Notes: generated from the sequence alone by a model not told the origin. DNA of 64,000 nt from Pseudomonadota bacterium (GCA_043827325.1 JBDRPF010000037.1:8887-72886); one strand, 5' to 3'; counted from the stretch's first letter, positions 5,192 to 47,315 are shown. Made by a program: numbers and translations.

Positions 5192-5336
5192 GTCATGCCT
5201 CCTTAAAAAAATTCCGAATCCACAATTAGAATGTGAGCCATCTTTTTGTTTCCTCATTTTTCGTTTTGGTTTGTCATGGTGGCCCCCGTTTGGTTATGAT
5301 GAAAAGTTGAATCCAACAACATGAGTCTCTGATACT

Positions 5337-5351
5337 GCAAGGCACATGCCA
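5337..5351 (-). promoter_or_regulatory. sigma54 -24/-12 promoter (TGGCAT-GTGCC-TTGC)
   Basis: Correct spacing, 146 nt upstream of the CBM48 start. A degenerate UAS lies 115 bp upstream. Confidence 0.6.
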
Positions 5352-5447
5352 TAATGAAGAAAATTTTTACGTTACTTTAACATACTAAAATCGTAATACA
5401 AAATAACCCCGGGCGCGAAAAAACGTGCAATTCAAACAGCAATTGCC

Positions 5448-9182: not shown

Positions 9183-9202
9183 GACGATCTCCTTCCGTTT
9201 TT

Positions 9203-9673
9203 TTACTCCACTACCCAGACCGTGCAGTTTTTGGCATGGCTGACAATTTTGCTGGATATGCTCCCGAACAAAAACTCCTCGCTTATCGACAGGCCATGCC
9301 TGCCGACCACAATCGTACCGCAGCCCCATCGCGCCTGTTCGGCAAGGATGCATTCGGCAATGGAGGGACGATACCGGAGGGTTGTTTTCAGGTCGACCGC
9401 ATTCGGATCAAAGCCTTCTTGAACAAGGATCCGGCGGTATTGCTCGAGCACGCCGTCGATTTCCCGTCGATACTGCCGCAGCCATATCTCCTGCTCAATT
9501 TGGGTGGAGAAGTAATCTTCTTCAGGCGGGTTGATCACGTGCAGCAGAACGACGTCAACCCCCTGGAGGCCTCGCAGCGTCTGCGAAACGTAGGATACGG
9601 CCCTTCGAGAGTTTTCGGACTCATCCACAGCGATTAGAACCTTTCTGTTGTAATCATGATTCATATTTTTCAT
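9203..9673 (-). CDS. universal stress protein (UspA family)
   Basis: Start trimmed to the ATG at 9673 (MKNMNHDYNRKVLIAVDESENS), which has AGGAG upstream. The VVGRHGLS...GSISSKIVSHAKNCTVWVV C-terminus is present. Confidence 0.8.
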   Translation of the reverse strand: MKNMNHDYNRKVLIAVDESENSRRAVSYVSQTLRGLQGVDVVLLHVINPPEEDYFSTQIEQEIWLRQYRREIDGVLEQYRRILVQEGFDPNAVDLKTTLRYRPSIAECILAEQARWGCGTIVVGRHGLSISEEFLFGSISSKIVSHAKNCTVWVVE

Positions 9674-9698
9674 CACTCCTGCTTGCTTTAACCCCGAT

Positions 9699-10694: not shown

Positions 10695-10753
10695 GCTCGA
10701 TACGATTTCTCCTTAAAAGCCAACATGACCTTTCCACCGAAACCAATGAAGAA

Positions 10754-10773
10754 ACACCTTTGAAGAAAGGTGT
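10754..10773. other. perfect 8-bp hairpin ACACCTTT-gaag-AAAGGTGT in the 98-nt gap after glgP
   Basis: Palindrome read directly from the sequence. It may be an attenuator or a processing site. Confidence 0.45.
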
Positions 10774-10792
10774 CTCACAGAACCTATCCTGT

Positions 10793-18998: not shown

Positions 18999-19013
18999 TG
19001 GCACGCCTCTTGC
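18999..19013 (+). promoter_or_regulatory. sigma54 -24/-12 promoter (TGGCAC-GCCTC-TTGC)
   Basis: Perfect consensus, 105 bp downstream of the centre of UAS copy 5. Confidence 0.7.
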
Positions 19014-31069: not shown

Positions 31070-31084
31070 GCAAAGGATGTGCCA
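31070..31084 (-). promoter_or_regulatory. sigma54 -24/-12 promoter (TGGCAC-ATCCT-TTGC)
   Basis: Perfect consensus, 123 nt upstream of ATG 30947. The UAS lies 115 bp upstream. Confidence 0.7.
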
Positions 31085-32340: not shown

Positions 32341-34041
32341 ATGAAAAAGAATCATTACGCTTCATTGAAAAAGATCATTCTGGCCTGCATGATCGTGGTG
32401 CCGTTGATACCCTTTGGCATGGTCATCGCTATCGGTTATACCTATTTTATCAGTTCCCTGGAAAACAGTACCATCGCGAGCATGAACCGAATCGTCGAAG
32501 ACCATCGTCACATGATTGAATCCTTTCTGGATGAGCGCAAGGCCGATTTGGAATTCATTATCCAGTCGTATTCGTACGATTATTTGAGCCGGCCGGATAA
32601 TCTTCGGATAATCTTCGGTCAATTGAAGCGGGTTTCCAATGCCTTTGTCGATCTGGGAATTTTGAGTGAAGCGGGCGTCCATCTGGCATACCAGGGACCG
32701 TATGCGCTCACCGGCAAGGTGTATAAAGAAACAGACTGGTTCGCAGAAGTGAAGAAAAATGGCTATTATATCAGCGATGTTTTTCTCGGGTTCCGGCAGG
32801 TGCCTCATTTTATCATTGCGATTTCCAGAAAGGATGGAGACAGGGAGTGTGTCATTCGGGCAACGATAGACACGTTTACATTCAATGCACTGGTCGAACA
32901 GGTTCGAATCGGCAAAACCGGCGAAGCGTATCTTCTCAATAAAGAAAACATCCTCCAGACCAATCGTCGCTCCGGTGGGAATTTAATGGAAAAGCTTTCC
33001 GACAGGATCAGGTATCCGGCATCCCATCACGGAATTCAGACGTTTATCAATAAAGATTCAGACGGAAAAAAATATCTTTATGCAACCACCTGGCTCAAAA
33101 ATAAAGATTGGCTGCTGGTTGTGAGGCTGGATCAGGCAGATGCCTTCAGGTCCCTCCGGTCTGCCGGATATCTGATTTTTCTTACGACGGTTATCGGCGG
33201 TGCGGTCATCGTTACCCTGGCCTTTTTTTTGACGAATCGAATCATCGGTCGCATGGAACGAATGGACTCGGAAAAGGCCTCGCTGAGCCAGCAGCTTATA
33301 CTGGCGGCACGACTTGCGGAAATCGGCGAAATGGCGGCGGGTTTTGCCCATGAAATCAACAATCCCCTCCAAATCATGAAAACGGAACAGGCACTGATCG
33401 AAATGATTTTCTCAGAATTGAAAGAAAAACAACAGCTCCGGGATTCGGAAGATTTAACAGAGCTGGAAGATTCCCTTGACCAGATTAAAATCCAGATAAA
33501 TCGTTGCGCAAAGATTACCCAGGCCATTCTAAAGTTTGCCCGGCAAGACAAACCTTCGCATCAAAAGGTCGACTTAGAAACAATTATTCCTGAGTGCACC
33601 GGGATGATATCAAAAAATGCCAGTGTCCACGGCATCGCCATCGATCAGAAGATTTCAGAAGACCTGCCGCTGGTTTTTGGAGACCCCGTTCAGTTTCAGC
33701 AGGTTTTGCTCAATCTTTACAACAACGCCATAGATGCGATTATCGAAAAACACGGGGCCGAGGGTGGCCAACTTGTGATCGAGGCAGGGGTGGAAAATGA
33801 ACAATCCATTGAAATTTCCGTCATGGACAACGGATGCGGCATCAACCCGGAGAATCAGGAAAAGATTTTTTCACCGTTTTATACCACCAAACCGGTTGGA
33901 AAGGGGACCGGTCTCGGCCTTTCGGTTTGCTTCGGAATTGTAGAAAGCATGGGCGGGGTCATGGACGTCAGCAGTGAGCAAGGTGTCGGCACGACATTCA
34001 GGATACGGTTGCCTGTCGCTGATCCGCAGCCCGCCCGATAA
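32341..34041 (+). CDS. membrane sensor histidine kinase (Cache-like + HisKA + HATPase)
   Basis: 566 aa with the FAHEINNPL H-box and DNGCGI / GTGLGL. It is a paralog of 16441..18141. Confidence 0.85.
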   Translation: MKKNHYASLKKIILACMIVVPLIPFGMVIAIGYTYFISSLENSTIASMNRIVEDHRHMIESFLDERKADLEFIIQSYSYDYLSRPDNLRIIFGQLKRVSNAFVDLGILSEAGVHLAYQGPYALTGKVYKETDWFAEVKKNGYYISDVFLGFRQVPHFIIAISRKDGDRECVIRATIDTFTFNALVEQVRIGKTGEAYLLNKENILQTNRRSGGNLMEKLSDRIRYPASHHGIQTFINKDSDGKKYLYATTWLKNKDWLLVVRLDQADAFRSLRSAGYLIFLTTVIGGAVIVTLAFFLTNRIIGRMERMDSEKASLSQQLILAARLAEIGEMAAGFAHEINNPLQIMKTEQALIEMIFSELKEKQQLRDSEDLTELEDSLDQIKIQINRCAKITQAILKFARQDKPSHQKVDLETIIPECTGMISKNASVHGIAIDQKISEDLPLVFGDPVQFQQVLLNLYNNAIDAIIEKHGAEGGQLVIEAGVENEQSIEISVMDNGCGINPENQEKIFSPFYTTKPVGKGTGLGLSVCFGIVESMGGVMDVSSEQGVGTTFRIRLPVADPQPAR

Positions 34042-34070
34042 GAATCAGAATTTTTTGAAGCGGTAATCAA

Positions 34071-34451
34071 ATGGAAAAAATCAAAATGATGCTGGTGGAC
34101 GACGAGGAACGATTCCTTTGCACCACCCGGAAGCTGCTCAAGAAGAAGGGCTATGACCTTCAAACCGCCTCGAGCGGTATAGAAGCATTGGAAAAATTGA
34201 AAACGAAAGACATCCACGTAGTTATCCTGGACGTAAAACTGCCGGGCATGGACGGAATTGCCACCTTGAAGGAAATCAAAAAGAGCTATCCCGGGGTTGA
34301 AGTTATCATGCTGACCGGACACGCAACGGTCGAGACGGCCGTGGAAGGCTTAAAGTCCGGGGCGGCCGACTACCTGACCAAGCCCATCGACATACACGAG
34401 CTTGTCGACAAAGCACACACCGTATTTGAAAAAGGAAGGAAATATGTCTGA
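34071..34451 (+). CDS. single-domain response regulator (CheY-like)
   Basis: 126 aa, [11 protein letters not shown]...DVKLPGMDG...KP. Confidence 0.9.
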
Positions 34452-34839
34452 AACACCTCGAGTTTTGATTGTTGACGATGAAAAGAGATTCCGGATTACG
34501 TTGAGCAAGCTTCTCAAAACCAACGGCATATCTGCAAAAGGGGTGGAAAGCGGAGAGAATGCCCTGGAAGAGCTGGTTAAAAATTCATATGACGTGGTTC
34601 TTTTGGATGTGAAAATGCCGGGGATCAGCGGCATAGAGGTCCTGAAACAGATGAAAAAACAGGGTTGCGACGCAGAGGTCATTGTGCTCTCCGGACATGC
34701 GTCCGTCGATGCTGCCCTGGAAATCATGAATTTCGGTGCTTATGATTATCTGTTAAAGCCCATGGACGTCGACGACCTCCTGGCCAAAATTTCACTGGCC
34801 CATGAGCGGAAAATCGAAAGGAAAAAGATTGAGAAATAA
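34444..34839 (+). CDS. single-domain response regulator (CheY-like)
   Basis: Start at the ATG at 34444 ([16 protein letters not shown]), overlapping the previous stop by 8 nt. Confidence 0.85.
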
Positions 34840-34871
34840 AGGGGAGGGATTTCCATCCGGACACCGCTTTT

Positions 34872-37484
34872 TTATTGGTCGCCCAGATCAAAACTATATT
34901 CTCCGTTTAGAAAGCGTTCGGCCAGGTATGCCACACTCTCTTCTCCGGTCATCAGCATGTCCATCTGACGGGTGTACAGGAGGAGTCGGCCAAGGCAATC
35001 CAGTTTTTCCTCGATGACTTCGGGTTCGTGCTTGCCAAAACGCGCCGTCACCCTGTCTCCCTGAACCTCCACAAGAAAACCCATCTCTTCGAGAATCTTT
35101 GCGATGAGCCGGGCCCGGCGGTTTCTGCGGAGGTCGTCGGCCGCGCCGCCCTTAAATTGAAAGTTGATGTAATTCTTGGTGCTTGTCTTGCCGCAGTAGG
35201 TGTCCAGGATGCTGTAATGGTATCCCACCCGGGAGCTGAAATTGAGATATTTGTCTGAAATAATGGCATAACTCTTGTCGCCGAACCGTTCCGCGGCAAT
35301 ATTCGGAGGAGAAAACATCTGTTCGCTCATTACGGATAAAAATCCCTTCAATTCAACCGGCCTTGGCTCTAAACTTCTCAGGTCGTCCCGCAGCATCCCT
35401 TTGAGCAGCGCATTGAACGGTGCAGAAGTAATGCGATCCACCGTCACTTTGGCCTGCGATGCCGGCGCTTCGATCAGCCCCCCGTCCAGATCGATAATGT
35501 ACAGATCGATGGGGAGGGGCGCACTCAATTTTACGGAAATCTTTCCGTGTCCGGTAACCAGATCACTGATTTGGAATAGTTCGGCGTAGGAAAGTTCATG
35601 GATCAACCGCATGATGTCATGGATCGTCTTGCAGTTCTGTGGCGCAAAGGCCGGCGATTTGGGATCCACAAGGTTCAACGGAACAACCATGTCCGCCATT
35701 TTTCGCAACGTCCGGTATACAGGAGTGTCTTTCATGAAAATGCCCCGTTGCACCTTCATGCCGGCAAGCTCCGGAACTTTTCCCAGATACACGCATCCGG
35801 AATAGGCATCCACCGTCACTTCCACACCGTGTTCAACCCTGGAAGTTGCCCATTGCGTGTTTAAAAGAGCGGGGATTCCAAACTCCCTGGCAAGGGACGC
35901 CATGTGCCCGAGCACACTTCCCGAATCGGTCAGAATGGCCTGCGCCCTGGGCATAACGATAACGTATTGAGGTGACGGATGCGGGGCAACGAGCACACCT
36001 CCCTCTGGAAATGACGCCAGATCGTCTTCAGAGCGAACGTGATGGGCGGGTCCGAATCCCACACCCTGACAGGCCACGTCGCCCTTCTCCAAGAGCAGGG
36101 TGTATCCCGGCAATCGCTTAGGGGTTGCCAATCCGTTTCGGCTGTGTTGCGGCTCGCGCCTCAGCGGCCGGGCCTGAAGGATAAAAAGATTATCGCCGTG
36201 ATCAATGGCCCATTCGATATCTTGCGGGCATTCAAAGTGGGTTTCCAATTTCATGGCGTGCTCGGCCAGGACCCTCATCTGATCTTCCGTAAGGCAGGGC
36301 TGGTTTTGGAGTACGGACTCAACCGGTTCTTCCATGAGATAGCCGTCCTGCCGGGTGGTCAGCCGCACCGGTTTCTCGGAAATTTTTGACTCCAGGAGAA
36401 CAGGCCGGGAGTCCTTTGACAGAGAGTAGGAATCAGGGGTGATAGTACCGTCGACAACATACGGACCCAGCCCCCACACCGCATTGATGATGATGTGGTC
36501 TTCCAGGACATTAAAGGGATGCCTGCTGTACATAACCCCGCTGATCCTGGCCGGAATCATTTCCATGCAGGCCACGCTCATGACCACGTCTTCGAACGGG
36601 ATGCCCATGTGAAACCGGTAAGACATGGCTCGCGGCGTGAACAGGCTTGCCAGGATTTTTTTATATTCCAATATGATTCTTTCCGGCGGTACGTTCAGGG
36701 CGCTCACATACTGACCGGCAAAGGACAGCTCGCTGTCTTCCCCGATGGCGCTGCTGCGCATGGCAATCTTTATGTTCCCCGGGCCGGAAACACTTGCGGC
36801 ACAAAGCGCCGCGTAGGCCCCGGAAATCGCTTTTTCAACGTCCGCAGGGACTTTTGCTTGAAGGAAAAGTCTCTGAATGTTTTCGCTGATGCGGATAACG
36901 GACTCGGTGTCGTTGGCTTTGAGTTCCATTTTTTGCTTTCGGATTTCATCAGTCAAATCGTTGGACCGGACAAACATGTCGAACGCCCGGGTGGTGATGG
37001 CAAACCCCGGGGGCACGGGGATGTTTGCACGATTCATGAGTTCACCGAGATTGGCGTTTTTTCCACCGACAAAATCAACCATTTCTTTTGTGATTCGGGC
37101 ATACGGCAAAACATAATCCAGAACCACGGGCCCGCTCCTGCGTTCCAGCTCCTGTTTGACGGCCTGATGAATATTCTCCAGAACTTCCGCAAGAAACGGA
37201 TATTTGCGGTCGGACAGATTTTCGAAACTGTTGATCATCCGGGCGGCATGGAATATGACCCGGGTGGACTGTGCGTGGATGTAGGACATGCCGAACACGT
37301 CCTGCCCGCGGAGTTTTTCTTCAATATCTGAAATGATTTTAAGGAGTTCCGAGTTCGACCCCAGCAGAGATTTGAAATTGTCGTACTTCTTCCTGAAGGC
37401 ACTCATTGTCTGCTGGCTGGAACGGTGCCGCCGGGGGTTTTTTTTGAACAAGGAATAAAGCAGATCGATCATTTTAAGCATCAA
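34872..37484 (-). CDS. PEP/pyruvate-binding (PPDK_N ATP-grasp) + swivelling phosphohistidine domain protein with an unassigned C-terminal domain of about 300 aa (PpsA-like dikinase)
   Basis: 870 aa with GGKNANLGEL (ATP-grasp) and TDSGSVLGHMASLAREFGIPAL (mobile His domain). I could not see a PEP-utilizer TIM-barrel signature. Its start overlaps the bEBP stop by 11 nt. Confidence 0.7.
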   Translation of the reverse strand: MMLKMIDLLYSLFKKNPRRHRSSQQTMSAFRKKYDNFKSLLGSNSELLKIISDIEEKLRGQDVFGMSYIHAQSTRVIFHAARMINSFENLSDRKYPFLAEVLENIHQAVKQELERRSGPVVLDYVLPYARITKEMVDFVGGKNANLGELMNRANIPVPPGFAITTRAFDMFVRSNDLTDEIRKQKMELKANDTESVIRISENIQRLFLQAKVPADVEKAISGAYAALCAASVSGPGNIKIAMRSSAIGEDSELSFAGQYVSALNVPPERIILEYKKILASLFTPRAMSYRFHMGIPFEDVVMSVACMEMIPARISGVMYSRHPFNVLEDHIIINAVWGLGPYVVDGTITPDSYSLSKDSRPVLLESKISEKPVRLTTRQDGYLMEEPVESVLQNQPCLTEDQMRVLAEHAMKLETHFECPQDIEWAIDHGDNLFILQARPLRREPQHSRNGLATPKRLPGYTLLLEKGDVACQGVGFGPAHHVRSEDDLASFPEGGVLVAPHPSPQYVIVMPRAQAILTDSGSVLGHMASLAREFGIPALLNTQWATSRVEHGVEVTVDAYSGCVYLGKVPELAGMKVQRGIFMKDTPVYRTLRKMADMVVPLNLVDPKSPAFAPQNCKTIHDIMRLIHELSYAELFQISDLVTGHGKISVKLSAPLPIDLYIIDLDGGLIEAPASQAKVTVDRITSAPFNALLKGMLRDDLRSLEPRPVELKGFLSVMSEQMFSPPNIAAERFGDKSYAIISDKYLNFSSRVGYHYSILDTYCGKTSTKNYINFQFKGGAADDLRRNRRARLIAKILEEMGFLVEVQGDRVTARFGKHEPEVIEEKLDCLGRLLLYTRQMDMLMTGEESVAYLAERFLNGEYSFDLGDQ

Positions 37485-39984
37485 GACCTTCCAAAACCGG
37501 AACGTAGCGCGTTGCAGGCCCCTGGCCCACTTTTTTCAACAGCCCTTTTTTCACCAGGTCCTGCAGGTCGTATATGGCGGTTCGCGGAGAGAGATCTCCC
37601 CCGACGATCTCCTGATATTCGCTGCGGGAAATCCATCCCCGCTGCACGATTGATGGATACGCCTTTTCCTGGCGCGGGTTCATTTTTCCCCTGTAATTGT
37701 TTGGAATTAATGGTGTTTTAGGAAGCGGTTGTCGGCTGAAAACGACCCCGGCTCCGTTATCCCGGACAACGGCCGGAAAACCGGCGCCGGGTTCATCGCT
37801 CGCGGCCGGATGCGTCATGCCCCGGCCAGGCGCTTCGGACTCCAATTTGATAGCTTCTGCCTGGATCACGTTTCCTTCCGCCATGACCACAGCCCTGATG
37901 ATACAGTTCATCAACTCCCGGACATTTCCCGGCCAGTCGTATTGTTTCATTTTCTCCAGCGCGCCCCGGCTCAGCCCAAGCTCTCCCTTGCTTGCCATTA
38001 TGGCGGCCTGTTTGAGATAATGTCGGGTCAGGACAGCAATATTTTCTTTCTGTTCTCTCAGCGAAGGCGTGTAGATGGTGATGACTTTGAGCCGGAAGTA
38101 AAGATCGCTCCTGAACACCCCTTGTTCAATGAGCGCCTTGAGATCGGCATTCGTCGCCACGATCAATCTTACATCGACCGATATCTCCCTGTCACGGCCC
38201 AGCGGTTTGATTCTGCGCATGGCGATTGCCCGAAGCAGCGATTGCTGGACGGCGGATGACGCGGTCTGAATTTCATCCAGAAACAGGGTCCCGCCGTTTG
38301 CTTCCAAAAATGCGCCCTTGCGGTCGGTTTTCGCTTCGGTGAATGCGCCTTTGACATGACCGAAAAGCGTGTCCAGCAATAAATTTTCGTCCAGCTCGCC
38401 GCAATTTATGGAGATAAACGGCTTTCCCGACCGATTGCTGTGATGGTGGATCGCCTCTGCCGCCAGTTGTTTGCCGGTTCCGGTTTCGCCGATGATGAGG
38501 ACATCCACATCCGCCTGTGCCGCTTTCCATATATCCGATTTAAGTGCTTCAATTTTCGTGCCAAAACCCAAGATACCGGAAATTTCGATGCCCGACGAGC
38601 CTGTGGAGTGCACCGGAAATTCCTTCTCCAGCGTCGCTTTCTCCTTGAGACTGACCGTTTCGATCTCTTTATCTCTGATCCGGATTTCATCGAGCTGCCG
38701 TTTCATCGTGGCAATCATGGTATTGATGGCGTTCTGCAATACGGTTGTTTCAACGCCGGATCGCGGCAACCGTATCTCTTCCAGTTCATCGGGTTCCCGC
38801 ATGGTGTTCACCGCCCGGGAGAGTTCGAATATCGGCCGGGTGATGAACCGGGCAAATATAAATATCAGCAGGGAAACGACCAGGATCGTCAAAAGCGTGA
38901 TGACGAACATGACATCGATCTGCTTGTAGCCGGCAACAAGGGTCAGCCTGACACGGTCAACATATGCCACGCCGCCGTAAATTACGGGCTCGGCATTTTT
39001 ATCCGGACTAAAGCGAACAGGGGCATAAGAAACGTAGTATTCTTTGATGTCAGACCTGTACTCCTCGTCCCGGAGCTTCATAACATCCCGTTTTCCCTCG
39101 TGGGTATCCCGGACCATTTTCCAGAAGTGGCCGAACACCGAGGCCGGCCTGAAAGCAGACGGCAGATCCGGTCTTCCCAGGGTACCGGTAAATCCGGACC
39201 GCGCCAGATCGGTCGTCAGTTCCTTGTCCGGTTTATCCGGGTCCTCCGACTGGAAAAGGATCCACCCGTCTTTGTCGAAAAAATAGAGATACCGAACTTC
39301 GGGACTGCGCGGGAATGCCCAGATCGGCGATTTTGGGGAATTGTAAACGGACAGGATGTTTCTCAACGTGCGGACGTCCACTGAAAGAATCACATACCCG
39401 GGTTCGCGTCCTTTCCGATCATAGGCAATACCCAGATAGATAACCCGGGAAGATATTTTTCGGTTCGGGTTGGACGGGGATGGAAAGGGGTGCTCCACTT
39501 CAACGATGTTGGATATCCAAACGTCATTTTTACCTAAATTTTTTATTTGGTCATAAAAAAGAAGGGGGTTGGGGCGGACCTCGGAAATTTGTTCCGGGGG
39601 GATCTGCAAGATCTCGTCATCCTTTGCTACCAGAACAATGTGTGATGGGCCTGTTTGCGAAATATACGCAAATTCGCGGTAGGCAACGCCGCCGGCTCGC
39701 CGGGTGTTTGCGAGAAAGTTGCGCATTCCTGCCAGATCAAGTTCATTTTGCGCGACAAACGCGAGATCTTGCCTGCACCGCTCCAGAAATCTTTCAATTT
39801 CGTGAGCAAACGCCAGGGTTTGAACCCTGATGACCCTTTCGATGGCAATGTTGATGAAGTGGCAGGTCACCCGGTAGCTGATGTAGCCGGTTATGGCCAG
39901 TATGGCCACTATTGGCGGAATCAGCCAGACCAGAAGCTTGGTTTTGATGCTGGTCGATTTGAAACCGTTCTTGAATACGGACAT
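37474..39984 (-). CDS. membrane-anchored sigma54 enhancer-binding protein (2 TM + periplasmic sensor + HAMP-like + AAA+ + C-terminal winged-helix)
   Basis: 836 aa with GETGTGKQ Walker A, GAFTEA in place of GAFTGA, and WPGNVREL. The C-terminus LSPRTAIYDLQDLVKKGLLKKVGQGPATRYV is wHTH-like rather than Fis-type. Confidence 0.75.
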   Translation of the reverse strand: MSVFKNGFKSTSIKTKLLVWLIPPIVAILAITGYISYRVTCHFINIAIERVIRVQTLAFAHEIERFLERCRQDLAFVAQNELDLAGMRNFLANTRRAGGVAYREFAYISQTGPSHIVLVAKDDEILQIPPEQISEVRPNPLLFYDQIKNLGKNDVWISNIVEVEHPFPSPSNPNRKISSRVIYLGIAYDRKGREPGYVILSVDVRTLRNILSVYNSPKSPIWAFPRSPEVRYLYFFDKDGWILFQSEDPDKPDKELTTDLARSGFTGTLGRPDLPSAFRPASVFGHFWKMVRDTHEGKRDVMKLRDEEYRSDIKEYYVSYAPVRFSPDKNAEPVIYGGVAYVDRVRLTLVAGYKQIDVMFVITLLTILVVSLLIFIFARFITRPIFELSRAVNTMREPDELEEIRLPRSGVETTVLQNAINTMIATMKRQLDEIRIRDKEIETVSLKEKATLEKEFPVHSTGSSGIEISGILGFGTKIEALKSDIWKAAQADVDVLIIGETGTGKQLAAEAIHHHSNRSGKPFISINCGELDENLLLDTLFGHVKGAFTEAKTDRKGAFLEANGGTLFLDEIQTASSAVQQSLLRAIAMRRIKPLGRDREISVDVRLIVATNADLKALIEQGVFRSDLYFRLKVITIYTPSLREQKENIAVLTRHYLKQAAIMASKGELGLSRGALEKMKQYDWPGNVRELMNCIIRAVVMAEGNVIQAEAIKLESEAPGRGMTHPAASDEPGAGFPAVVRDNGAGVVFSRQPLPKTPLIPNNYRGKMNPRQEKAYPSIVQRGWISRSEYQEIVGGDLSPRTAIYDLQDLVKKGLLKKVGQGPATRYVPVLEGLDA

Positions 39985-40114
39985 GACGTTTAACCCTTCC
40001 GGTTATCCGTTTCTGCGAGTTGCCTTCCATTATTCGCAAATTCTCGCATTTTCATGGGGGTCTTATACAGTAAATCTCGATATCACGCAAGATAAATTTA
40101 TCCTTCTCTTATTT

Positions 40115-40132
40115 ATTCGATTTCATTCGATT
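40115..40132. promoter_or_regulatory. direct repeat ATTCGATT x2 (10-bp register) upstream of the 40189 promoter
   Basis: ttATTCGATTtcATTCGATTga lies 57-74 bp upstream of the -24 box. Related TTCGCAAATTCTCGCA occurs at about 40033. Confidence 0.3.
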
Positions 40133-40188
40133 GATATTACACTAAATTCCCTATGAAACATTGTTTTGCCATATCGCCGTTGACTGCA

Positions 40189-40203
40189 TGGCACGCATCT
40201 TGC
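40189..40203 (+). promoter_or_regulatory. sigma54 -24/-12 promoter (TGGCAC-GCATC-TTGC)
   Basis: Perfect consensus, 71 nt upstream of usp 40274 and divergent from the bEBP gene. There is no TTTTACA palindrome upstream. Confidence 0.75.
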
Positions 40204-40273
40204 TCATTGTTCTAATAACGCAGCCTTCAAGCAAGGAAATAAGGATAACCTGATACAGAAAGGGGGGAGGGTA

Positions 40274-40684
40274 ATGAAAATTTTAGTGGCGATGGATGAT
40301 TCGGATTTTTCACGAAAGGCGCTGGCAAAGGCCATAGCTCTCGCAAAATTTGAGCCGTCAGAGCTGTTTATCTTATCTGTTACGCCTTTTTTGGGCGCCA
40401 TTGATGAGTTGTCGCCCGGACTGATCGACAAATTAAAGGAAAGAGCGGAAAACATCGTGAAAAAAGCGGCGAAAACCGCCCAAAAGGAACGCCTTCAGAC
40501 AAAGGTGTTTACCGAGCAGGGCGTATCGCCAGCAAATAATATCATTCGGCTTGCGGAAGAGAATAAAATGGACCTCATTGTCGTGGGGCATCGCGGAAAA
40601 GCCAATCTGGAAAAATTTTTGCTGGGCAGTGTGGCGTCCCGGGTTATTTCCCACGCATCGTGCTCCGTATTAATCGTTAAATAA
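40274..40684 (+). CDS. universal stress protein (UspA family)
   Basis: 136 aa, KILVAMDDSDFS...VVGHRGKANLEKFLLGSVASRVISHASCSVLIV. GGAGGG RBS. Confidence 0.85.
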   Translation: MKILVAMDDSDFSRKALAKAIALAKFEPSELFILSVTPFLGAIDELSPGLIDKLKERAENIVKKAAKTAQKERLQTKVFTEQGVSPANNIIRLAEENKMDLIVVGHRGKANLEKFLLGSVASRVISHASCSVLIVK

Positions 40685-40714
40685 CAGCGTATGAGAGGAA
40701 ACAAGGAGGGTATC

Positions 40715-41014
40715 ATGAAAATCATTGCAGGAAGAATTATTGCATCGTTGACAGTACTGTATCTTTGGCTGCCGTCAATCGTCCGGGCAGGCGGAGAAGC
40801 GGCCGGTGAAATCGTCGTGGTGGCCGACACGCGTGTTCTTAACAGCGGTATTTTGAAATACTTTTCCGACCTGTACAACACCAATATCCTTTTGTTTGCC
40901 CTGTGGGCCGTGGTGTTGACCGCCGTTTACGGGTGCTTTCTGGGGGTGTTGATGGATATGATCATGTCACGGACCGGGCTTGATCTCAAGAGCAGAAAAA
41001 TTATCGAGCATTAG
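40715..41014 (+). CDS. small membrane protein (signal/anchor + 1 TM), unknown function
   Basis: Start at the ATG at 40715 (MKIIAGR), which has AAGGAGGG upstream. It has a hydrophobic N-terminus and the LLFALWAVVLTAVYGCFLGVLM helix. Confidence 0.55.
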   Translation: MKIIAGRIIASLTVLYLWLPSIVRAGGEAAGEIVVVADTRVLNSGILKYFSDLYNTNILLFALWAVVLTAVYGCFLGVLMDMIMSRTGLDLKSRKIIEH

Positions 41015-41045
41015 GGATAATAAGAAGGATTAAGGAGGTATCAAC

Positions 41046-42095
41046 GTGGAATTCTTAGCAAACACTGATTGGTTGTATCTTTATATGCCCATCTCCGGGG
41101 TCAAGATTTTCTGGCCCGGCCTGGTTTTGATCGGGTTTTCGGTGGGTGTTATCGGGGGGTTTTTCGGCATGGGCGGCGCCTGGATGGTGACGCCGGGGCT
41201 TAACATTCTCGGGTTTCCCATGGCGTTTGCCATCGGAACGGATATCGCACACATTGCCGGAAAATCAATGGTTTCGACCATGCGCCACTCCAAATTCGGC
41301 AACGTAGACTACAAGCTGGGCTTCGTCATGATAATCGGCACCATGGTCGGTATCGAGTGCGGCGCACAGATCATTATGTACCTGGAGCGTCTGGGAATGG
41401 TCGGCTCCGTCGTCCGCTGGGTGTATGTCTTTTTTCTGGCGCTGATCGCTTTCATGGTTTTTTTTGATTATGCCAAAGCGGTTCAGAAGAAAAAGGCCGG
41501 GGAGGTCGGTGAGCACGGCGCGGAAGGGATTACCTGGTACAAAACCCTGCACAAGATAAAGATTGCGCCCATGATGCACTTCAAGACCGCCGGTATCACA
41601 TGCTCGGCATGGCTTCCGATCATGGTCAGTTACTTAACCGGCGTTCTGGCCGGCTTCCTGGGCATCGGGGGCGGGTTGCTGCGCATGCCCGCGCTGGTCT
41701 ATCTGATCGGCACCCCCACCCACATCGCCGTGGGCACGGACCTGTTCGAGGTCATGATCTCCGGGCTGTATGGCGCTTTCACCTACTCGCTGAAAGGTCG
41801 TATTGAAATCGTTGCCGTGTTCGTTATGCTGACCGGCGCCGCCATCGGGGCCCAGATCGGTACCGTGGCAACCAAGTACGCCAGGGGATACGGCATCCGC
41901 ATCGCCTTCGGCATCGCCGTGGTCTGCTGCATGATTTCCGTTATCCTGAAGCAGTTCAAGTATAACATGTCTGCCGCGGTTCTCATTCTAGGCACCATTT
42001 CGCTGATCTGCCTGTACATCATAAAGATCATGTTCACGGGCGCCGCGCAGGAGCTGCGTGACAAGAAAATCGCTGCCGGATTGGCGAAAGTATAA
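41046..42095 (+). CDS. TauE/SafE (DUF81) family anion permease
   Basis: 349 aa with GGFFGMGGAWMVTPG and GFLGIGGGLLRMPAL repeats. GTG start with an AAGGAGG RBS. Confidence 0.75.
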   Translation: MEFLANTDWLYLYMPISGVKIFWPGLVLIGFSVGVIGGFFGMGGAWMVTPGLNILGFPMAFAIGTDIAHIAGKSMVSTMRHSKFGNVDYKLGFVMIIGTMVGIECGAQIIMYLERLGMVGSVVRWVYVFFLALIAFMVFFDYAKAVQKKKAGEVGEHGAEGITWYKTLHKIKIAPMMHFKTAGITCSAWLPIMVSYLTGVLAGFLGIGGGLLRMPALVYLIGTPTHIAVGTDLFEVMISGLYGAFTYSLKGRIEIVAVFVMLTGAAIGAQIGTVATKYARGYGIRIAFGIAVVCCMISVILKQFKYNMSAAVLILGTISLICLYIIKIMFTGAAQELRDKKIAAGLAKV

Positions 42096-42129
42096 CCGGT
42101 TTAATTGAAACCACAAAGGAGAAACAGCC

Positions 42130-42465
42130 ATGAAAAAGAAGGTTTATCTGTCAGCGCTGTGTTTGGCCGTATGTCTGTTCTTCGCGGCGAACGGCAGCGC
42201 CTCTGAGGTTATCCAGGGGAAGTGTCTCGTGTATAACACGGACGCCAAAACAATCAAGATCGAAGAGTTTGACACAAACTTCAGCAAGGACGCGCCCTAC
42301 GGGCAACCGACCGGCATCATCAGTGACGTCGACTGCTCAACGGCGAAAATCGGAATTTTCCCGGAACCCGGAGATATCCTTAGGATTGCATACCGGGTCA
42401 AGGGCGAGGTGAAAGAAGCCATTAAAGTCATGAATGTGTCAAAGCAGGAGTTACGGAAAAAATAA
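42130..42465 (+). CDS. small secreted protein (signal peptide), unknown function
   Basis: 111 aa, MKKKVYLSALCLAVCLFFAANGSASE signal peptide. AAGGAGA RBS. Confidence 0.6.
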   Translation: MKKKVYLSALCLAVCLFFAANGSASEVIQGKCLVYNTDAKTIKIEEFDTNFSKDAPYGQPTGIISDVDCSTAKIGIFPEPGDILRIAYRVKGEVKEAIKVMNVSKQELRKK

Positions 42466-42488
42466 CATCATCCATTTCTACAACCGGG

Positions 42489-42515
42489 CCTGCAACCGGT
42501 ACGGACGGTTGCAGG
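42489..42515 (+). terminator. perfect 9-bp hairpin CCTGCAACC-(9 nt)-GGTTGCAGG after the secreted-protein gene
   Basis: Read directly from the sequence. There is no U-tract, so terminator function is uncertain. Confidence 0.4.
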
Positions 42516-42603
42516 TCGTACCGGGAAGCGAAAGAGCAGGGCATGACAGGATTAAAGGAAAAACATATCAGGCACTGCCGACCCCCGGAGAAAGGAACGC
42601 GAC

Positions 42604-42819
42604 ATGCGCCAGGAAAATAATCGAAAGCAAAATATTGTTTTGATCATGGTTGACACGCTGGTTTTGCTGGAGTTGATGTTCAGCATCTATCTCGGCTATC
42701 AGAACCCGGAAAATATAACGGCTGTTTTCTTGAAAACATATATTCCCGTGGTTATTGTGACCATACTCATCGGAAGGTTTTTTATCAGAAGATTGGGTTC
42801 GGAAGAAGCAAAAGCCTAA
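42604..42819 (+). CDS. hypothetical small 2-TM membrane protein
   Basis: 71 aa with two hydrophobic helices. GGAGAAAGGAA lies upstream. Confidence 0.35.
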   Translation: MRQENNRKQNIVLIMVDTLVLLELMFSIYLGYQNPENITAVFLKTYIPVVIVTILIGRFFIRRLGSEEAKA

Positions 42820-42910
42820 TTACAGGTGCCAGGCGGGTTTTAGGATTTGATAGCGCCTGCTCGAAAATTGTAATGCAATGTTCGGGACAGGGACATCGGA
42901 AGTGCCAAAA

Positions 42911-43315
42911 TCAGCGCCCCCCGTCAGCGCCCCCCTTTTGTGCTGTTTTACTCAAAGCACCCTCGATCGATCGCTTGAGCTTGTCAATATCGATCGGCTT
43001 ACTGAGATGGCCGTCAAAGCCGATCTCTTCCAGATGTTTCGGCTCAAACCGGGCAAGATGGCCGGAAAACGCATAGACAACCGCCTCTGAGTTTATCGCA
43101 CGAATTCTTCTGCACAATTCAATGCCGTCCATGTCCGGCATGAGTAAATCTACGATGATCAGGGGGAATGCTTCTTTCTCCAGGATCCTCAAGGCCGCAT
43201 CCGCATGTTCGGCAAATTCGACATCGTATCCCAGCCGAACGAGCATTTTTTTCATGGATTTCCGTTGAAATTCATCATCGTCAACAAATAAGATCTTCTT
43301 TGAATGTGCCGTCAT
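42911..43315 (-). CDS. single-domain response regulator (CheY-like)
   Basis: 134 aa, KILFVDDDEFQ...DLLMPDMDG...KP. Confidence 0.85.
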   Translation of the reverse strand: MTAHSKKILFVDDDEFQRKSMKKMLVRLGYDVEFAEHADAALRILEKEAFPLIIVDLLMPDMDGIELCRRIRAINSEAVVYAFSGHLARFEPKHLEEIGFDGHLSKPIDIDKLKRSIEGALSKTAQKGGADGGR

Positions 43316-43358
43316 TTATGGATGTGTCCCAACGGGTTGTTGCCCCGGACTAAATATA

Positions 43359-43400
43359 TTTTCTATGAAAGACCTTGGAAGAAAGGTGTTTCATAGAAAA
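43359..43400. repeat. perfect 12-nt inverted repeat TTTTCTATGAAA-(18 nt)-TTTCATAGAAAA
   Basis: Read directly from the sequence. It lies between the stop at 43422 and the response-regulator start at 43315. Confidence 0.7.
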
Positions 43401-43421
43401 CATTCGGGATAATGGATGCGG

Positions 43422-44240
43422 TCAAATCTCTTTTCCATCCGGTTTGATTGCGATGAGGTAATCCGGCGCAATCGGGTCCGCCAGCGGATAGGTGGCATTG
43501 GTGGATTCCGATTCGACCTCCGTCGCAACGATCTCTCCCACCGGCTCCCGGTGTTTGTTCAGAACAACGAGGTGATCCCCGGGACGGACCCCGTGTTGGC
43601 TTCCCAGCCCGAAGACGACCTCCCAGTCGGTCTTTCGCTTGGCCAGTTTGTAAATGGGGCCGACCCCTTCCGACTGAAGGGCTTCAAGCTCTTTCCCCCC
43701 TTCCCGCATGGTAATATAAATACAGTACAGCGCCAGGGGAAAAAGCACCAGTGTCATCCAGAACGGAGCAAACCCGAAATATCGCTGCGAAAGGGAGGAA
43801 AAACTCTTGCGGTAAGCTCGGTCGTTTTGAAAAAGCCGGATGGTGAATTTCGGCGCCTTTTCATCGAAACCCTCGGCTTCCTGAAAGAGGCTGACGACAT
43901 AGTCGCCCTGGGGTGCCGATTTGGCACTTTCCAGCACCCCCCGCCACAGCCTTCCCTTTGCTTCCAGAAAACGGAGTCGAAAAAAATCGTATTGCGGCGT
44001 GTAGGTAATGATTTCATCGTACGGTGTGCGGTTGGGCTTTGTCCCGGCAATCTGGGTATAGTACTTGACCCGGTTCTCATCCACCGGTGCGGTCAACTTT
44101 CCGCTGATATAGACCGGGTTGCCGGCAACGGCTTTAAAGGTGTATTTGGAACCGGTGACGACCATGATCAAGGTGTCGAGGATGGACAGAGCGAGCAGAA
44201 TGAGAACAAGAACCGCAACTTTTCTGTTAGGCAAACTCAT
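43422..44240 (-). CDS. hypothetical membrane protein (N-terminal TM, periplasmic region, central TM, cytoplasmic beta-rich C-terminus)
   Basis: 272-aa ORF in line within the kinase operon. No recognisable motif. Confidence 0.5.
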   Translation of the reverse strand: MSLPNRKVAVLVLILLALSILDTLIMVVTGSKYTFKAVAGNPVYISGKLTAPVDENRVKYYTQIAGTKPNRTPYDEIITYTPQYDFFRLRFLEAKGRLWRGVLESAKSAPQGDYVVSLFQEAEGFDEKAPKFTIRLFQNDRAYRKSFSSLSQRYFGFAPFWMTLVLFPLALYCIYITMREGGKELEALQSEGVGPIYKLAKRKTDWEVVFGLGSQHGVRPGDHLVVLNKHREPVGEIVATEVESESTNATYPLADPIAPDYLIAIKPDGKEI

Positions 44241-44520
44241 GGCATGTGCTTCCCGTCACCCAAGGATTAATCGGATATTTTTCTTGGATTCGTTTTCGAC
44301 AATCAAATGGCGGCAACCAGATACTTTACCCGAATGCCCTTGAGCCCCACGTTTTCCAGAAATGCTTCCAGGGACTTTCCGCTCATGCATGGCGCCCTTC
44401 CTTTTTAGACAGACACGTTATAGAAACGGAACTTGCGTTCGGATTCTAAAAGCGCTGAAGAATTTGTGGGCCAGGGAAAACGGCAGCGATACAGTTTGTA
44501 ACAATACGCGACCGGATTCT

Positions 44521-45189
44521 TTACTTGATTGCAGAAGGCAGGGTCAGCAGAATGCCGGGAGCCGATTCCTCCATTTTCGCAAAACCGCCCAGAGAGGCAG
44601 CGATTTCTTGTAATATCGACCAGTTTTCTGAAACAGATATGGTATTGCTAAAGGCGGTTTCACGAAGCGAATCCCCTTCGCATAAAAAATAAACTTCCTG
44701 TTTTTCACCGCCTTTCCGGGGATAAATGTTAATTTGTCCCCCGGAGGTCATCACGTTTAGACAACATTCGATGCATTTATACAGTGCTCTCTGTAACAGA
44801 AGCGGATGGGTCATAATCGTGATCGGTTGGTCCGGGGGGTGGACTTTTAGAACGACATTTTTTAATCTGGCATAGCGGGCAGTCAGCGCGATCAGCTGTT
44901 CGGTCATTTCGTAGAGATCGATTATAGAAATGCTCTCATCGGTGCTGTGTGCAAATTTGTTGAGCCGGTTCGTCAATTCGACTCCCCGTTTGATCTGGGT
45001 CTTAATTCTATCCAGGGAAATTTGAATCTTGTCCTGATGTGAAGGGATCGCCTCCGGAGCAATGGCCAAGATGTCTTCCATCAGGCCCGATGCCTGCTGG
45101 ATGATGGCGAGAACATTTTTTATCTCATGCGTAAACCCGGCGGTGATTTTCCCGAAAAAGGCAACGTTGTTCTCATCTGGTGTTTTCAT
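44521..45189 (-). CDS. degenerate histidine-kinase-like protein (DHp H-box retained, ATP-lid boxes absent)
   Basis: FTHEIKNVL H-box is present but I saw no DxGxG or GxGxGL boxes. Start placed at the ATG at 45189 (MKTPDENN), which has GGGAAGGAAAA upstream; an alternative start is the GTG at 45210. Confidence 0.6.
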   Translation of the reverse strand: MKTPDENNVAFFGKITAGFTHEIKNVLAIIQQASGLMEDILAIAPEAIPSHQDKIQISLDRIKTQIKRGVELTNRLNKFAHSTDESISIIDLYEMTEQLIALTARYARLKNVVLKVHPPDQPITIMTHPLLLQRALYKCIECCLNVMTSGGQINIYPRKGGEKQEVYFLCEGDSLRETAFSNTISVSENWSILQEIAASLGGFAKMEESAPGILLTLPSAIK

Positions 45190-45210
45190 TTTTCCTTCCC
45201 AAACAGCCAC

Positions 45211-45588
45211 TCAACTTGGCGGTATGTTTTTGACGGCTTCTTCCATTTTTCGAATCAATTCATCGATTTTTACCGGCTTCATCAGGTAGTCATGAGCCCC
45301 CAACTGCATCCCCTCGGCCCCTTCTGTCGCAGACCCGCGGCCGGTCAAAAGGATAACCGGAAGTTGAGGGGCCCGGGCTTTCACCTGCTGCAAGACATCC
45401 AGACCGCTTATCCCCGGCATCAGGAGATCCAGTACCACCAGATGCGGAGGGTCATTTTCAATTATTTGCAGTGCACGCTCGCCATCGGAGGCCGTCAGAA
45501 CCTGATATCCTCTCAATTGGAGTCTTTCCGCCAGAGTGTCGACAAAGTCTTTCTCATCGTCTACGAGCAAAAGCTTCGGTTTCGTCAT
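45211..45588 (-). CDS. single-domain response regulator (CheY-like)
   Basis: 125 aa, KLLLVDDEKDF...DLLMPGISG...KP. There is an ATGA overlap with the kinase stop. Confidence 0.9.
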   Translation of the reverse strand: MTKPKLLLVDDEKDFVDTLAERLQLRGYQVLTASDGERALQIIENDPPHLVVLDLLMPGISGLDVLQQVKARAPQLPVILLTGRGSATEGAEGMQLGAHDYLMKPVKIDELIRKMEEAVKNIPPS

Positions 45589-47315
45589 GGTTGTCCCTGA
45601 TTCAGTTGTGGATGTTTTTTCAAATAGACGGTAAATGTCGTTCCCCGGCCTTCAGTGCTCTGAACTTTCACATCTCCGCCCAGTTTTTTAACAATGCCGT
45701 AGGTGATGGACAGACCAAGGCCGGTGCCGTATCCTTTTTTGCTTGTGAAAAAGGGCTCGAAGATATGTTTTTGAGTCTCAGCGGACATCCCGCAGCCGTT
45801 GTCCTGTATCGAAATCCCGATGAACTCGGCATCCTCGTCCCACGTCGTAATTGTAACCTGTCCACCGTCCGCGACTGCCGCGAAGCCGTTGGTCAAGATA
45901 TTCAAAAAAACCTGCTGCAATTGTCCGATGTCGGAGGATATTCTGGGAAGATCTCCCGCAAACTGAAGCCGGATGTCGATGTTTCTGTAGATGTATTCTT
46001 TTTCCAGAAAACCGAGCACTTCTTTAATGAGCTCGTTGACCTCCAGCATCTCGAACGTGACTTCCATCCGGCGGGCAAATCCCAGAAGGCGGTGGGTGAT
46101 CGTTTTGCAGCGTTCGACCGATTGAATAACGGAATCGATCAGTTCAAGAAATTTCCCCCCCCCCTCGACATGTTTTCCATATTCGATGAGGTCTTTCATC
46201 AGTCCGGCTTTTTCGTTGATAATAGCCATGGGGTTGTTGATTTCATGGGCCACGCCGGCCGCCAGTCTCCCGATGGACGAAAGCTTCTGGGAATGCTCGA
46301 GTTCCCGGAACGCGAGTTCGCGTTTTTCATCCGCCTCCCGCATGTTTTTCACCAGCACGCCGACAAGCTTGAAGACGACCAGAATAATGAGGGCGACGCT
46401 GGTTATAAAAATGAAAAACATTTCGCTTTTGAGTGTAAACCATGCCTGCAAAACTGCGGAACTGGGCTTGACGACGACCAGGGTGTAATCCGGCTTGTCC
46501 AGACGGGTGTAGACCGTTATGATCTGGCGTCCGACGGGATCGGTTCCTTCGGTCACCACGGATCCGTATTTGCCCGGGGGGGGCGAAAATGGGCAGGGCT
46601 CCAGGACCTTTCCGTAAAACTTGGAGCCGGTCTGAAAAATGCCTTTGTTGTTAATCAAAAAGGCATCGCTTTCCGGATTCAGTCCCATTGAAGCGATAAG
46701 CTTATCAAAAATATCCGTATCAAAGGTGGCGCGCAGGATCCAGCACCCTCTTTCCTCGTTGAACAACTGGACCGCGATGGCGATGTGGGGAAATTTTCGA
46801 TACCCCATAAAAACGTCGCTGATGTAAACGCCTCTTACAACCACCTCCTGGAACCAGCCCTGTTGTGAATAATCTTTTCCCAAAAGATCGTAGGGGCCTG
46901 CGTAGCTGACCTGAATGCCCTGGCAGTCGATCAGCCCCAGGTCTACAAATCCGCCGAATTCCGCTTTTAAAATGCGAAAAATACGGTTCAGGTTTTTTTC
47001 GTCGGCCAGCTCTTCAAAAGAATATGCCGAAGCAATGAATTTTACGTTGGCGAGTTTTTGGTCAAGAAAGAGTTCGAAGGAATGCTTGGTTTTGTTGGAC
47101 AGCAGTCGAAGCGGATTCACGATTTCGTTTTTTATCGTTGCTTGATACAGGTAATGGTTGATGGCGGTCATGAGCACCAGGGGAACAAGGGTCACCAGAA
47201 GCATCAGGATGACAATATTCCTTCGAAGGATGCGGTAGCGATCCGGAGAGGCTTCTTCACTGCCCGGCTGCAATAGGCCGCGTATAAGACGTTGATGCCA
47301 ATTTAAATCCGCCAT
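45585..47315 (-). CDS. membrane sensor histidine kinase (Cache-like + HisKA + HATPase)
   Basis: 576 aa with the VAHEINNPM H-box and DNGCGM / GTGLGL. It contains G10 and C8 homopolymer tracts. Confidence 0.85.
   Translation of the reverse strand: MADLNWHQRLIRGLLQPGSEEASPDRYRILRRNIVILMLLVTLVPLVLMTAINHYLYQATIKNEIVNPLRLLSNKTKHSFELFLDQKLANVKFIASAYSFEELADEKNLNRIFRILKAEFGGFVDLGLIDCQGIQVSYAGPYDLLGKDYSQQGWFQEVVVRGVYISDVFMGYRKFPHIAIAVQLFNEERGCWILRATFDTDIFDKLIASMGLNPESDAFLINNKGIFQTGSKFYGKVLEPCPFSPPPGKYGSVVTEGTDPVGRQIITVYTRLDKPDYTLVVVKPSSAVLQAWFTLKSEMFFIFITSVALIILVVFKLVGVLVKNMREADEKRELAFRELEHSQKLSSIGRLAAGVAHEINNPMAIINEKAGLMKDLIEYGKHVEGGGKFLELIDSVIQSVERCKTITHRLLGFARRMEVTFEMLEVNELIKEVLGFLEKEYIYRNIDIRLQFAGDLPRISSDIGQLQQVFLNILTNGFAAVADGGQVTITTWDEDAEFIGISIQDNGCGMSAETQKHIFEPFFTSKKGYGTGLGLSITYGIVKKLGGDVKVQSTEGRGTTFTVYLKKHPQLNQGQP

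Follow-up and report, generated by a model that had tools for sequence, protein, structure and literature searches.

The DVU0151 regulon and related systems

The closest described system to the locus studied here is the regulon of DVU0151, a single-component enhancer-binding protein (EBP) with a GAFSEA loop from D. vulgaris Hildenborough (Kazakov et al., 2015; PMC4641369). The locus occupies positions 34,872 to 42,465 of a 64,000-nucleotide stretch of DNA (the window) from a Pseudomonadota bacterium (GCA_043827325.1 JBDRPF010000037.1:8887-72886), and encodes a membrane-anchored bacterial EBP (bEBP), a PpsA-like dikinase and, divergently, an operon containing a TauE/SafE permease. DVU0151 is the sole EBP of D. 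vulgaris without a Fis-type helix-turn-helix (HTH), and together with its orthologues it matches a winged-helix superfamily model; its gene is divergent from the sigma-54 operon DVU0150-DVU0146, encoding a small membrane protein, a TSUP transporter, two lipoproteins and a hypothetical protein, and its predicted sites are of the TTTCGCGCAA type, such as TTTTTCGCGCAAAA (PMC4641369). In the same work GAFSEA is counted among the loop variants expected to remain active, the N-terminus is labeled as an "unknown sensing domain", and nothing is said on membrane topology, Cache/HAMP domains, a PpsA-like neighbor or receivers. The DVU0145-0150 genes go up in syntrophic co-culture with methanogens and down on the return to sulfate respiration (PMC4265775). 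In D. desulfuricans 27774, the adjacent genes Ddes_1642, Ddes_1643 and Ddes_1644, annotated as a small protein, a sigma-54 regulator and a "pyruvate phosphate dikinase", are all repressed by nitric oxide.

Classical bEBPs (NtrC, DctD, NifA, PspF, DmpR) share with the protein of the window an AAA+ domain with Walker A and B motifs, a loop-1 motif, upstream sites and a -24/-12 promoter, but they are soluble, receive their input through receiver (REC), GAF, PAS or V4R domains and carry a Fis-type HTH, whereas the family of the window is predicted to be membrane-integral, with an extracytoplasmic sensor and a winged helix. ToxR and CadC, too, are single polypeptides in which a periplasmic sensor is joined to a domain that binds DNA at the membrane; however, they have an N-terminal OmpR-type winged helix, one transmembrane (TM) segment and sigma-70 promoters, in contrast to the two TM helices, the DNA-binding domain at the C-terminus and the ATPase ring on sigma-54 of the bEBP of the window.

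It was the match of the small membrane protein of the window to the DVU0150 family that led us to the paper on the DVU0151 regulon. Both loci have a regulator with a long N-terminal sensing region, a GAF(S/T)EA loop and a C-terminal winged helix without Fis-type HTH, a divergent sigma-54 promoter with TTTCGCGCAA-like sites, and an operon whose opening genes encode a DVU0150-family protein and a TSUP permease and whose next ones encode small envelope proteins. The window differs in having GAFTEA instead of GAFSEA, a universal stress protein (Usp) gene leading the operon and an inverted pair of genes encoding a 272-amino-acid protein and a receiver. The nearest named genus member in our comparison is Nitratidesulfovibrio sp. 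HK-II (locus L022, 47% identity over the full length of the bEBP), DVU0151 itself being compared by its description. We consider it likely that the locus is a Desulfobacteraceae orthologue of the DVU0151 regulon, with the mechanism and the dikinase assignment proposed below.

A preliminary description of this DNA had presented the locus as an undescribed module. Since the regulator family, the loop, the winged helix, the operon and the sites were published for DVU0151 (PMC4641369), the regulator-promoter-operon core is already described by comparative genomics as the DVU0151 regulon. The link to the PpsA-like enzyme and the receivers, as well as the explicit membrane/Cache topology, appear to be undescribed in the searchable literature. 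The cluster is real and widespread among sulfate reducers. On the whole, the observations of the preliminary description are confirmed, every open reading frame (ORF) and element having been found where it had placed them, and its interpretation is partly supported.

Anatomy of the membrane-anchored regulator

The bEBP gene and the regions that it encodes are the following:

37474..39984 (-), one-component membrane bEBP, 836 amino acids
39880-39936 (-), first TM helix (TM1), residues 17-35
38935-39867 (-), periplasmic dCache-like domain, about residues 40-350
38857-38913 (-), second TM helix (TM2), residues 358-376
38653-38856 (-), HAMP-like helices, residues 377-444
37834-38571 (-), AAA+ sigma-54 domain, residues 472-717
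38332..38349 (-), GAFTEA sigma-54 contact loop, as translated
residues 716-758, disordered linker of ~45 residues in the AlphaFold2 model
37495-37683 (-), predicted C-terminal winged helix, residues 768-830

Both TM helices are strong segments in a Kyte-Doolittle hydropathy plot and flank the periplasmic domain, as had been proposed. The AAA+ domain matches PF00158 (Sigma54_activat) with 199.6 bits (cutoff, 20.2) over profile positions 6-167 of 168, and AAA_lid_14 with 67.9 bits, while the Fis-type HTH_8 was not found in the Pfam search. An AlphaFold2 model built with 20 homologues contains a long stalk helix (residues 13-79), two alpha/beta modules (residues 84-343) with a predicted local distance difference test (pLDDT) score of 85-93, and one long helix running through TM2 into the HAMP-like helices (helices 354-396 and 411-444). 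Precomputed matches to PF02743 (dCache_1) and PF00672 (HAMP) are present in several homologues. The C-terminal unit is modeled as helix-helix-helix-strand-strand (pLDDT 80-90), i.e., with a winged-helix topology, and its profile and Pfam matches are all weak and all to winged-helix families (Fic C-terminal domain, MotA, MarR, TrmB and Penicillinase_R). The earlier prediction of a winged helix in place of the Fis-type HTH is supported. Foldseek searches with the model gave NtrC1, ZraR and PspF as best matches; AAA+ matches dominated, and the search was thus uninformative on the sensor and the winged helix.

The GAFTEA loop noticed previously is real, and its glutamate is invariant across 20 aligned homologues, as is the winged-helix block RTA-YDL-D...G....G-G--T-Y. 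Literature searches on membrane-bound bEBPs and on the locus tags of the orthologues returned no functional data. A sensor shared by the bEBP and the neighboring kinase was also considered and rejected, given that the stalk-helix motif alone aligns.

Some further observations concern the DNA of this region. In the DNA run that contains this sequence, a contig connects position 37935 with 38270 and omits 334 nt of the AAA+ region, having only 20 nt on one side, and a low-depth variant contig covers 42805-42947; both are probably due to cross-assembly with paralogous genes or to strain variation. An NtrC-type REC-AAA+ sigma-54 activator is encoded at about 24857-25993(-); beyond the AAA+ core it has no relationship with the membrane bEBP.

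Conservation of the regulator, the promoter and the TauE operon

The promoter and the operon facing the bEBP gene comprise:

40189..40203 (+), sigma-54 promoter TGGCAC-N5-TTGC, TGGCACGCATCTTGC, an exact match facing the Usp/TauE operon
40274..40684 (+), Usp, first operon gene, carrying a motif of the ATP-binding type, G-x2-G-x9-G-S
40691..41014 (+), DVU0150-family small membrane protein, 107 amino acids (NCBIfam NF040783, 125.5 bits; cutoff, 70)
41046..42095 (+), TauE/SafE (TSUP) permease, 349 amino acids (Pfam TauE, 141 bits; gathering score, 32.6)
42130..42465 (+), small secreted protein, 111 amino acids, with a signal peptide and a weak DUF4881 match
42604..42819 (+), conserved two-TM protein, 71 amino acids, the final operon gene in the window, not among the genes of the preliminary description

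The bEBP family is large (381 matches below 1e-20 among the candidates scored), and full-length homologues with 50-74% identity are found in Desulfobacterales, Desulfovibrionaceae and Syntrophobacterales. We surveyed 68 genomic loci (designated by L-numbers) containing a member of the family. The DVU0150-family/TauE operon lies divergently from the bEBP gene in 39 of these 68 loci, with the same gene order, which supports the earlier view of sensor-regulator, promoter and operon as a conserved unit. Usp heads the operon in only about 12 of the 39. The PpsA-like gene is a conserved neighbor too, as had been suggested, being located directly downstream of the bEBP gene in 21 of the 39 loci; a further 6 have it at another place within 8 kb, and in 2 the sole copy is a more distant PpsA-like paralogue.

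The sigma-54 promoter is conserved in the same position. The strict pattern faces the operon in 31 of the 39 loci, and in 7 of the other 8 a near-consensus promoter was recognized by eye (variants CGGCAC, TGGCCC and TGGCGC, with L039 showing a weak -12 element), L064 being left out; a GG-N10-GC promoter faces the operon at every locus examined. A loose GG-N10-GC scan of the closest relative, L001, was uninformative by itself. The window contains 4 perfect TGGCAC-N5-TTGC matches, compared with 0.08 expected by chance. The three others, at 2567-2581(-), 18999-19013(+) and 31070-31084(-), indicate that the window is rich in sigma-54 regulons. Additional sigma-54 promoters were looked for before the 272-amino-acid gene, before the 71-amino-acid gene and after the dikinase gene, and none was found.

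The permease shows ~8 hydrophobic segments by hydropathy and is 80-90% identical across orders. Like other TSUP permeases it has a multi-TM anion-permease architecture, but this type has a longer central loop and is always paired with a DVU0150-family protein. The 111-amino-acid secreted protein is the counterpart of a 112-amino-acid gene product of D. aminophilus and, by its position, holds the place of the putative lipoproteins DVU0148/DVU0147. Between the genes of the secreted protein and the 71-amino-acid protein lies a stem-loop (42489-42515; CCTGCAACCG-GTACGGA-CGGTTGCAGG) whose stem of 10 bp is perfect and whose loop has 7 nt. It is not followed by a T-run and may serve in processing or attenuation within the operon.

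The bEBP family is broader than the TauE regulon, because its paralogues have other partners. One paralogue, which is 52% identical and also has GAFTEA and dCache, is transcribed divergently from a full V-type ATPase operon (L083, the same as L014, 188-7620). Others lie opposite the gene of a dCache histidine kinase or in one operon with it (L045, 5981-7690(-); L052, 5989-7692(-); L084, 4236-5933(-)), the kinase type being that of the two encoded in the window (32341-34041 and 45585-47315). A V-type ATPase as the common target of the paralogues was considered and rejected, since it occurs in only 2 of the 68 loci.

Upstream sites of the promoter

The elements found upstream of the promoter are listed below:

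40080..40093 (+), top match to the family motif, ATATCACGCAAGAT, 11.3 bits, including TCACGCAA at 40083-40090
40029-40042 (+), weaker match ATTATTCGCAAATT, 8.0 bits, with TTCGCAA at 40033-40039
40039-40052 (+), weaker adjacent match AATTCTCGCATTTT, 5.3 bits
40163..40176 (-), weak promoter-proximal match CGATATGGCAAAAC, located 13-26 bp upstream from the -24 element and scoring 6.4 bits
40115-40122 and 40125-40132 (+), direct repeat of ATTCGATT, 57-74 bp upstream of the promoter

Refinement by expectation maximization over the regions upstream of 31 promoters yielded the family motif wTATC[GT][CT]GCAAAA. In these regions GCGCAAAA occurs in 9 sequences (0.0 expected), and TCTCGCAA, TCGCGCAA and TCGTGCAA occur in 6-7 sequences each (0.1 expected). 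This motif, derived independently, agrees with the published DVU0151 sites, e.g., TTTTTCGCGCAAAA. The match at 40080-40093 is a probable distal bEBP site, and the pair at 40029-40052 are probable distal sites as well.

Across the 31 loci, the sites fall into a distal group at -180 to -81 and a proximal group within 40 bp of the -24 element, with few sites between -80 and -41. The motif model was trained on the same 31 upstream sequences that were later scanned, and thus only the positional pattern is informative, the counts not serving as a test. A proximal site is present in 20 of the 31 loci, often on the opposite strand, and is closer to the promoter than the sites of a bEBP usually are; loci with a proximal site include L003, L006-L013, L021, L028-L035, L058 and L064.

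The PpsA-like dikinase

The dikinase, which we call PpsL, has the following features:

34872..37481 or 34872..37484 (-), PpsA-like dikinase, 869-870 amino acids, starting at ATG 37481 or TTG 37484
residues 1-113, N-terminal helical domain
residues 124-440, ATP-grasp domain
residues 462-566, phospho-histidine swivel domain
residues 575-869, family-specific C-terminal domain

The overlap of 11 nt with the bEBP stop (TAA, 37476-37474) that had been reported holds if translation begins at TTG 37484; ATG 37481, with GGAAGG 5 nt upstream, is the likelier start and reduces the overlap to 8 nt. The dikinase gene is predicted to be translationally coupled to the bEBP gene.

PPDK_N (319.7 bits) and the PEP-utilizers mobile domain (65 bits) are the only Pfam domains of the protein, and the PEP-utilizers_C domain, i.e., the phosphoenolpyruvate (PEP)/pyruvate TIM barrel, was not found in Pfam. 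His526 of the swivel domain is invariant, and the extra N-terminal helical domain is conserved. The ATP-grasp and histidine domains match PpsA and rifampin phosphotransferase structures (PDB, Foldseek), and the PDB matches stop at residue ~577. The scores against the PpsA NCBIfam equivalogs (367 against a cutoff of 598; 359 against 740) are about half of the cutoffs, and those against the rifampin phosphotransferase/PigC-type equivalogs are also below theirs (217 bits against 999; 219 against 1300).

The last 296 residues gave nothing in Pfam at E<=5 and, as a profile against PDB sequences, nothing at E<=10; Foldseek with the whole model returned matches for the ATP-grasp and histidine domains and none for the C-terminal domain, whose modeled secondary structure is not (beta-alpha)8. 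This domain contains many invariant Arg, Lys and aromatic residues, and a search of 1.84 billion representatives placed it in 1219 clusters, nearly all sharing an architecture of about 830-900 amino acids, the shorter ones resembling fragments.

As in other histidine-swivel dikinases (PpsA, PPDK, rifampin phosphotransferase, phenylphosphate synthase, PigC/RedH), an ATP-grasp domain is combined with a mobile phospho-histidine domain. The order grasp-histidine-substrate is that of PpsA, whereas the rifampin phosphotransferase/PigC type has grasp-substrate-histidine. PpsL differs from all of them in its substrate domain, unrelated to the PEP/pyruvate TIM barrel or the rifampin-binding domain, in the extra N-terminal helical domain and in its context of a transporter operon and receivers. 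We do not take PpsL for a PEP synthase; it is probably an ATP-dependent histidine-swivel dikinase with a substrate domain of its own.

The genomic context of PpsL was surveyed in 80 metagenomic loci retrieved with the C-terminal domain as query, 23 of which extend 5 kb or more to either side. Of these 23, 21 contain the TauE orthologue and only 9 the membrane bEBP, and thus the dikinase is tied to the transporter operon and not to the membrane bEBP specifically, contrary to the proposal that it was the partner of this regulator. Among the 12 loci with TauE and without the membrane bEBP, 9 keep a sigma-54 promoter before the Usp or the DVU0150-family gene, and in some of these NtrC-type REC-AAA+ regulators stand in for the bEBP.

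Many genomes carry two PpsA-like paralogues (~36% identical) in one cluster, one beside the bEBP and the other at the distal end of the TauE operon. Such pairs were seen in L081 (D. aminophilus, 212-2800 and 9001-11601) and also in L005, L016, L021, L061, L096 and L144. The window carries a single PpsA-like gene. In the fuller cluster of D. aminophilus, PpsL follows the bEBP, and the divergent genes encode, in this order, the DVU0150-family protein, TauE, proteins of 112, 81 and 271 amino acids, a receiver and PpsL2.

Receiver-only genes and kinases

The two ends of the locus carry the following signaling and membrane protein genes:

32341-34041 (+), dCache histidine kinase, upstream of a receiver pair
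34071-34451 (+), first receiver-only gene, between the kinase and the second receiver
34441..34839 (+), receiver-only protein, encoded convergently to the dikinase, with 33 nt between its gene end and the dikinase stop
42911..43315 (-), response regulator consisting of a receiver only, located downstream of the 272-amino-acid gene, in the position of DVU0145
43422..44240 (-), 272-amino-acid membrane protein, homologue of the 271-amino-acid operon gene found elsewhere

The receiver encoded at 34441-34839 has orthologues in the same position in L085 (88% identity), L091 (63%) and L044 (58%). In L085 this receiver is better conserved than the bEBP (74%), and the arrangement of a kinase and two receivers (32341..34839) is conserved. 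In 22 of 57 PpsL loci and 15 of 35 PpsL2 loci, the dikinase gene has a receiver-only gene no more than 700 nt from its 3' end; the 5' end is flanked by one in 6 of 56 and 7 of 35, respectively.

Receiver-only genes adjoin PpsA-like genes in about half of the loci, with or without a histidine kinase nearby; examples are found in the window (34071-34839), L085 (7972-8869), L155 (7919-8461) and L081 (2817-3188). In the window and in L001 (about 4549-5361(+)), the genes of the 272-amino-acid protein and its receiver are turned around with respect to the TauE operon; in most other genomes they extend the operon on the same strand. A 229-amino-acid protein (44521-45210(-)), placed between receiver and 272-amino-acid genes, has a weak HisKA match and no recognizable ATPase domain; possible identities are a degenerate kinase and a phosphotransfer protein.

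Proposed mechanism and alternative explanations

The domain anatomy and the conservation of gene order, promoter and motif are shown here; the regulatory steps that follow, as well as any ligand, transport direction or dikinase substrate, are inferred. The bEBP would sit in the inner membrane with its double-PAS (dCache-like) domain in the periplasm, where the binding or loss of a ligand would be relayed through TM2 and the HAMP-like helices, leading to assembly of the AAA+ ring at the membrane. The winged helix, on its disordered linker, would bind the wTATC[GT][CT]GCAAAA sites (TCGCGCAA- and TATCGCGCAA-type DNA) upstream of the promoter, and the GAFTEA loop would remodel sigma-54 RNA polymerase at TGGCAC-N5-TTGC (40189). 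The resulting transcript would encode Usp, the DVU0150-family protein, the TauE/TSUP permease, the small periplasmic protein and the small membrane protein, most likely forming a membrane transport complex for an anion. The dikinase would belong to this TauE system, most likely phosphorylating the solute handled there or being controlled by the neighboring receivers.

Several results weigh against this scheme. The sensor and its linker match their families weakly, with 26.3 bits for dCache_1 on residues 59-267 (gathering score, 45) and 18.9 bits for HAMP on residues 377-426 (cutoff, 25), and the AAA+ portion of the model is poor (pLDDT 30-60). The best motif match in the window (11.3 bits) barely exceeds the 95th percentile of shuffles (10.8 bits), and hence the assignment of the sites rests on conservation and not on the window alone. 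No dikinase lies within 8 kb in 10 of the 39 TauE-type loci, several of these 10 being truncated. Three metatranscriptomes of the same groundwater study gave zero coverage over 34800-44300, the sequence occurring in the DNA run only, and literature searches on the TSUP substrate in sulfate reducers gave no functional data.

Two alternatives concern single elements of the locus. The ATTCGATT direct repeats, which are indeed present at 40115-40132 as the preliminary description had noticed, were proposed there as the enhancer of the membrane bEBP; they sit 57-74 bp upstream of the promoter and have ATTCG in common with the site ATTCGCAA at 40032-40039. Nevertheless, the family motif gives them no score, the published DVU0151 sites are TTTCGCGCAA-like, motif sites are rare at -80 to -41, and L001 lacks the repeats and retains TCGCAA-type sites. 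Being short, present in two copies and absent from the closest relative, they cannot be called beyond chance, and we regard this enhancer role as very unlikely. The PpsA-like gene could also be that of an ordinary gluconeogenic PEP synthase located downstream of the regulator by chance, as its best named matches are phosphoenolpyruvate synthases and many databases label it pyruvate, water dikinase. But the scores well under the curated cutoffs, the replacement of the TIM barrel by an unrelated conserved domain past residue ~577 and the order of dikinase and TauE-operon genes, which is kept across orders, make this reading extremely improbable.

The main rival to the solute-phosphorylation role of the dikinase is a signaling role via the receivers. 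PpsL would exchange phosphate with the adjacent receivers or be switched by them, fed by the dCache kinase, and would modulate the receiver-less bEBP in a branched circuit. Consistent with this are the preference of receiver-only genes for the 3' end of the dikinase gene over its 5' end, the 88% identical receiver in the same place in L085, the receiver beside the dikinase without any kinase in L155, the receiver directly preceding the second dikinase paralogue in D. aminophilus, the dCache kinases faced by bEBP paralogues that lack TauE and the conserved N-terminal helical domain of the dikinase. We know of no precedent, however, for phosphotransfer between the swivel histidine of a PEP-utilizer and a receiver aspartate. 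Moreover, receivers are very abundant in these genomes (13 receiver matches in the window alone), TauE accompanies the dikinase more often than any regulator does, and its arginine-rich invariant C-terminal domain would resemble a small-anion site. This role appears rather unlikely to us, and phosphorylation of the solute of the TauE system is the preferred assignment.

Implications for the biology of sulfate reducers

A broader proposal, put forward tentatively and as more doubtful than the orthology with the DVU0151 regulon, is that the dikinase, the receivers, the DVU0150/TauE operon and the sigma-54 activator form an uncharacterized envelope system of Desulfobacterota, in which the dikinase might phosphorylate the transported anion or be a new phosphodonor or target for the receivers, and which might underlie the syntrophy response of D. 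vulgaris.

DVU0145-0150 belongs to the small number of gene sets whose induction is specific to Desulfovibrio-methanogen syntrophy, and a membrane-integral bEBP with an extracytoplasmic Cache-type sensor, as predicted here, would provide handles on its role. The TauE operon travels with a non-canonical dikinase and receivers across Desulfobacterales, Desulfovibrionales and Syntrophobacterales. The locus thereby offers a ligand for screening, a DNA site for testing and an enzyme for assays, and the bEBP family would be a natural test of whether membrane tethering, a GAFTEA loop and a winged helix for DNA binding are compatible with the working of a sigma-54 activator.

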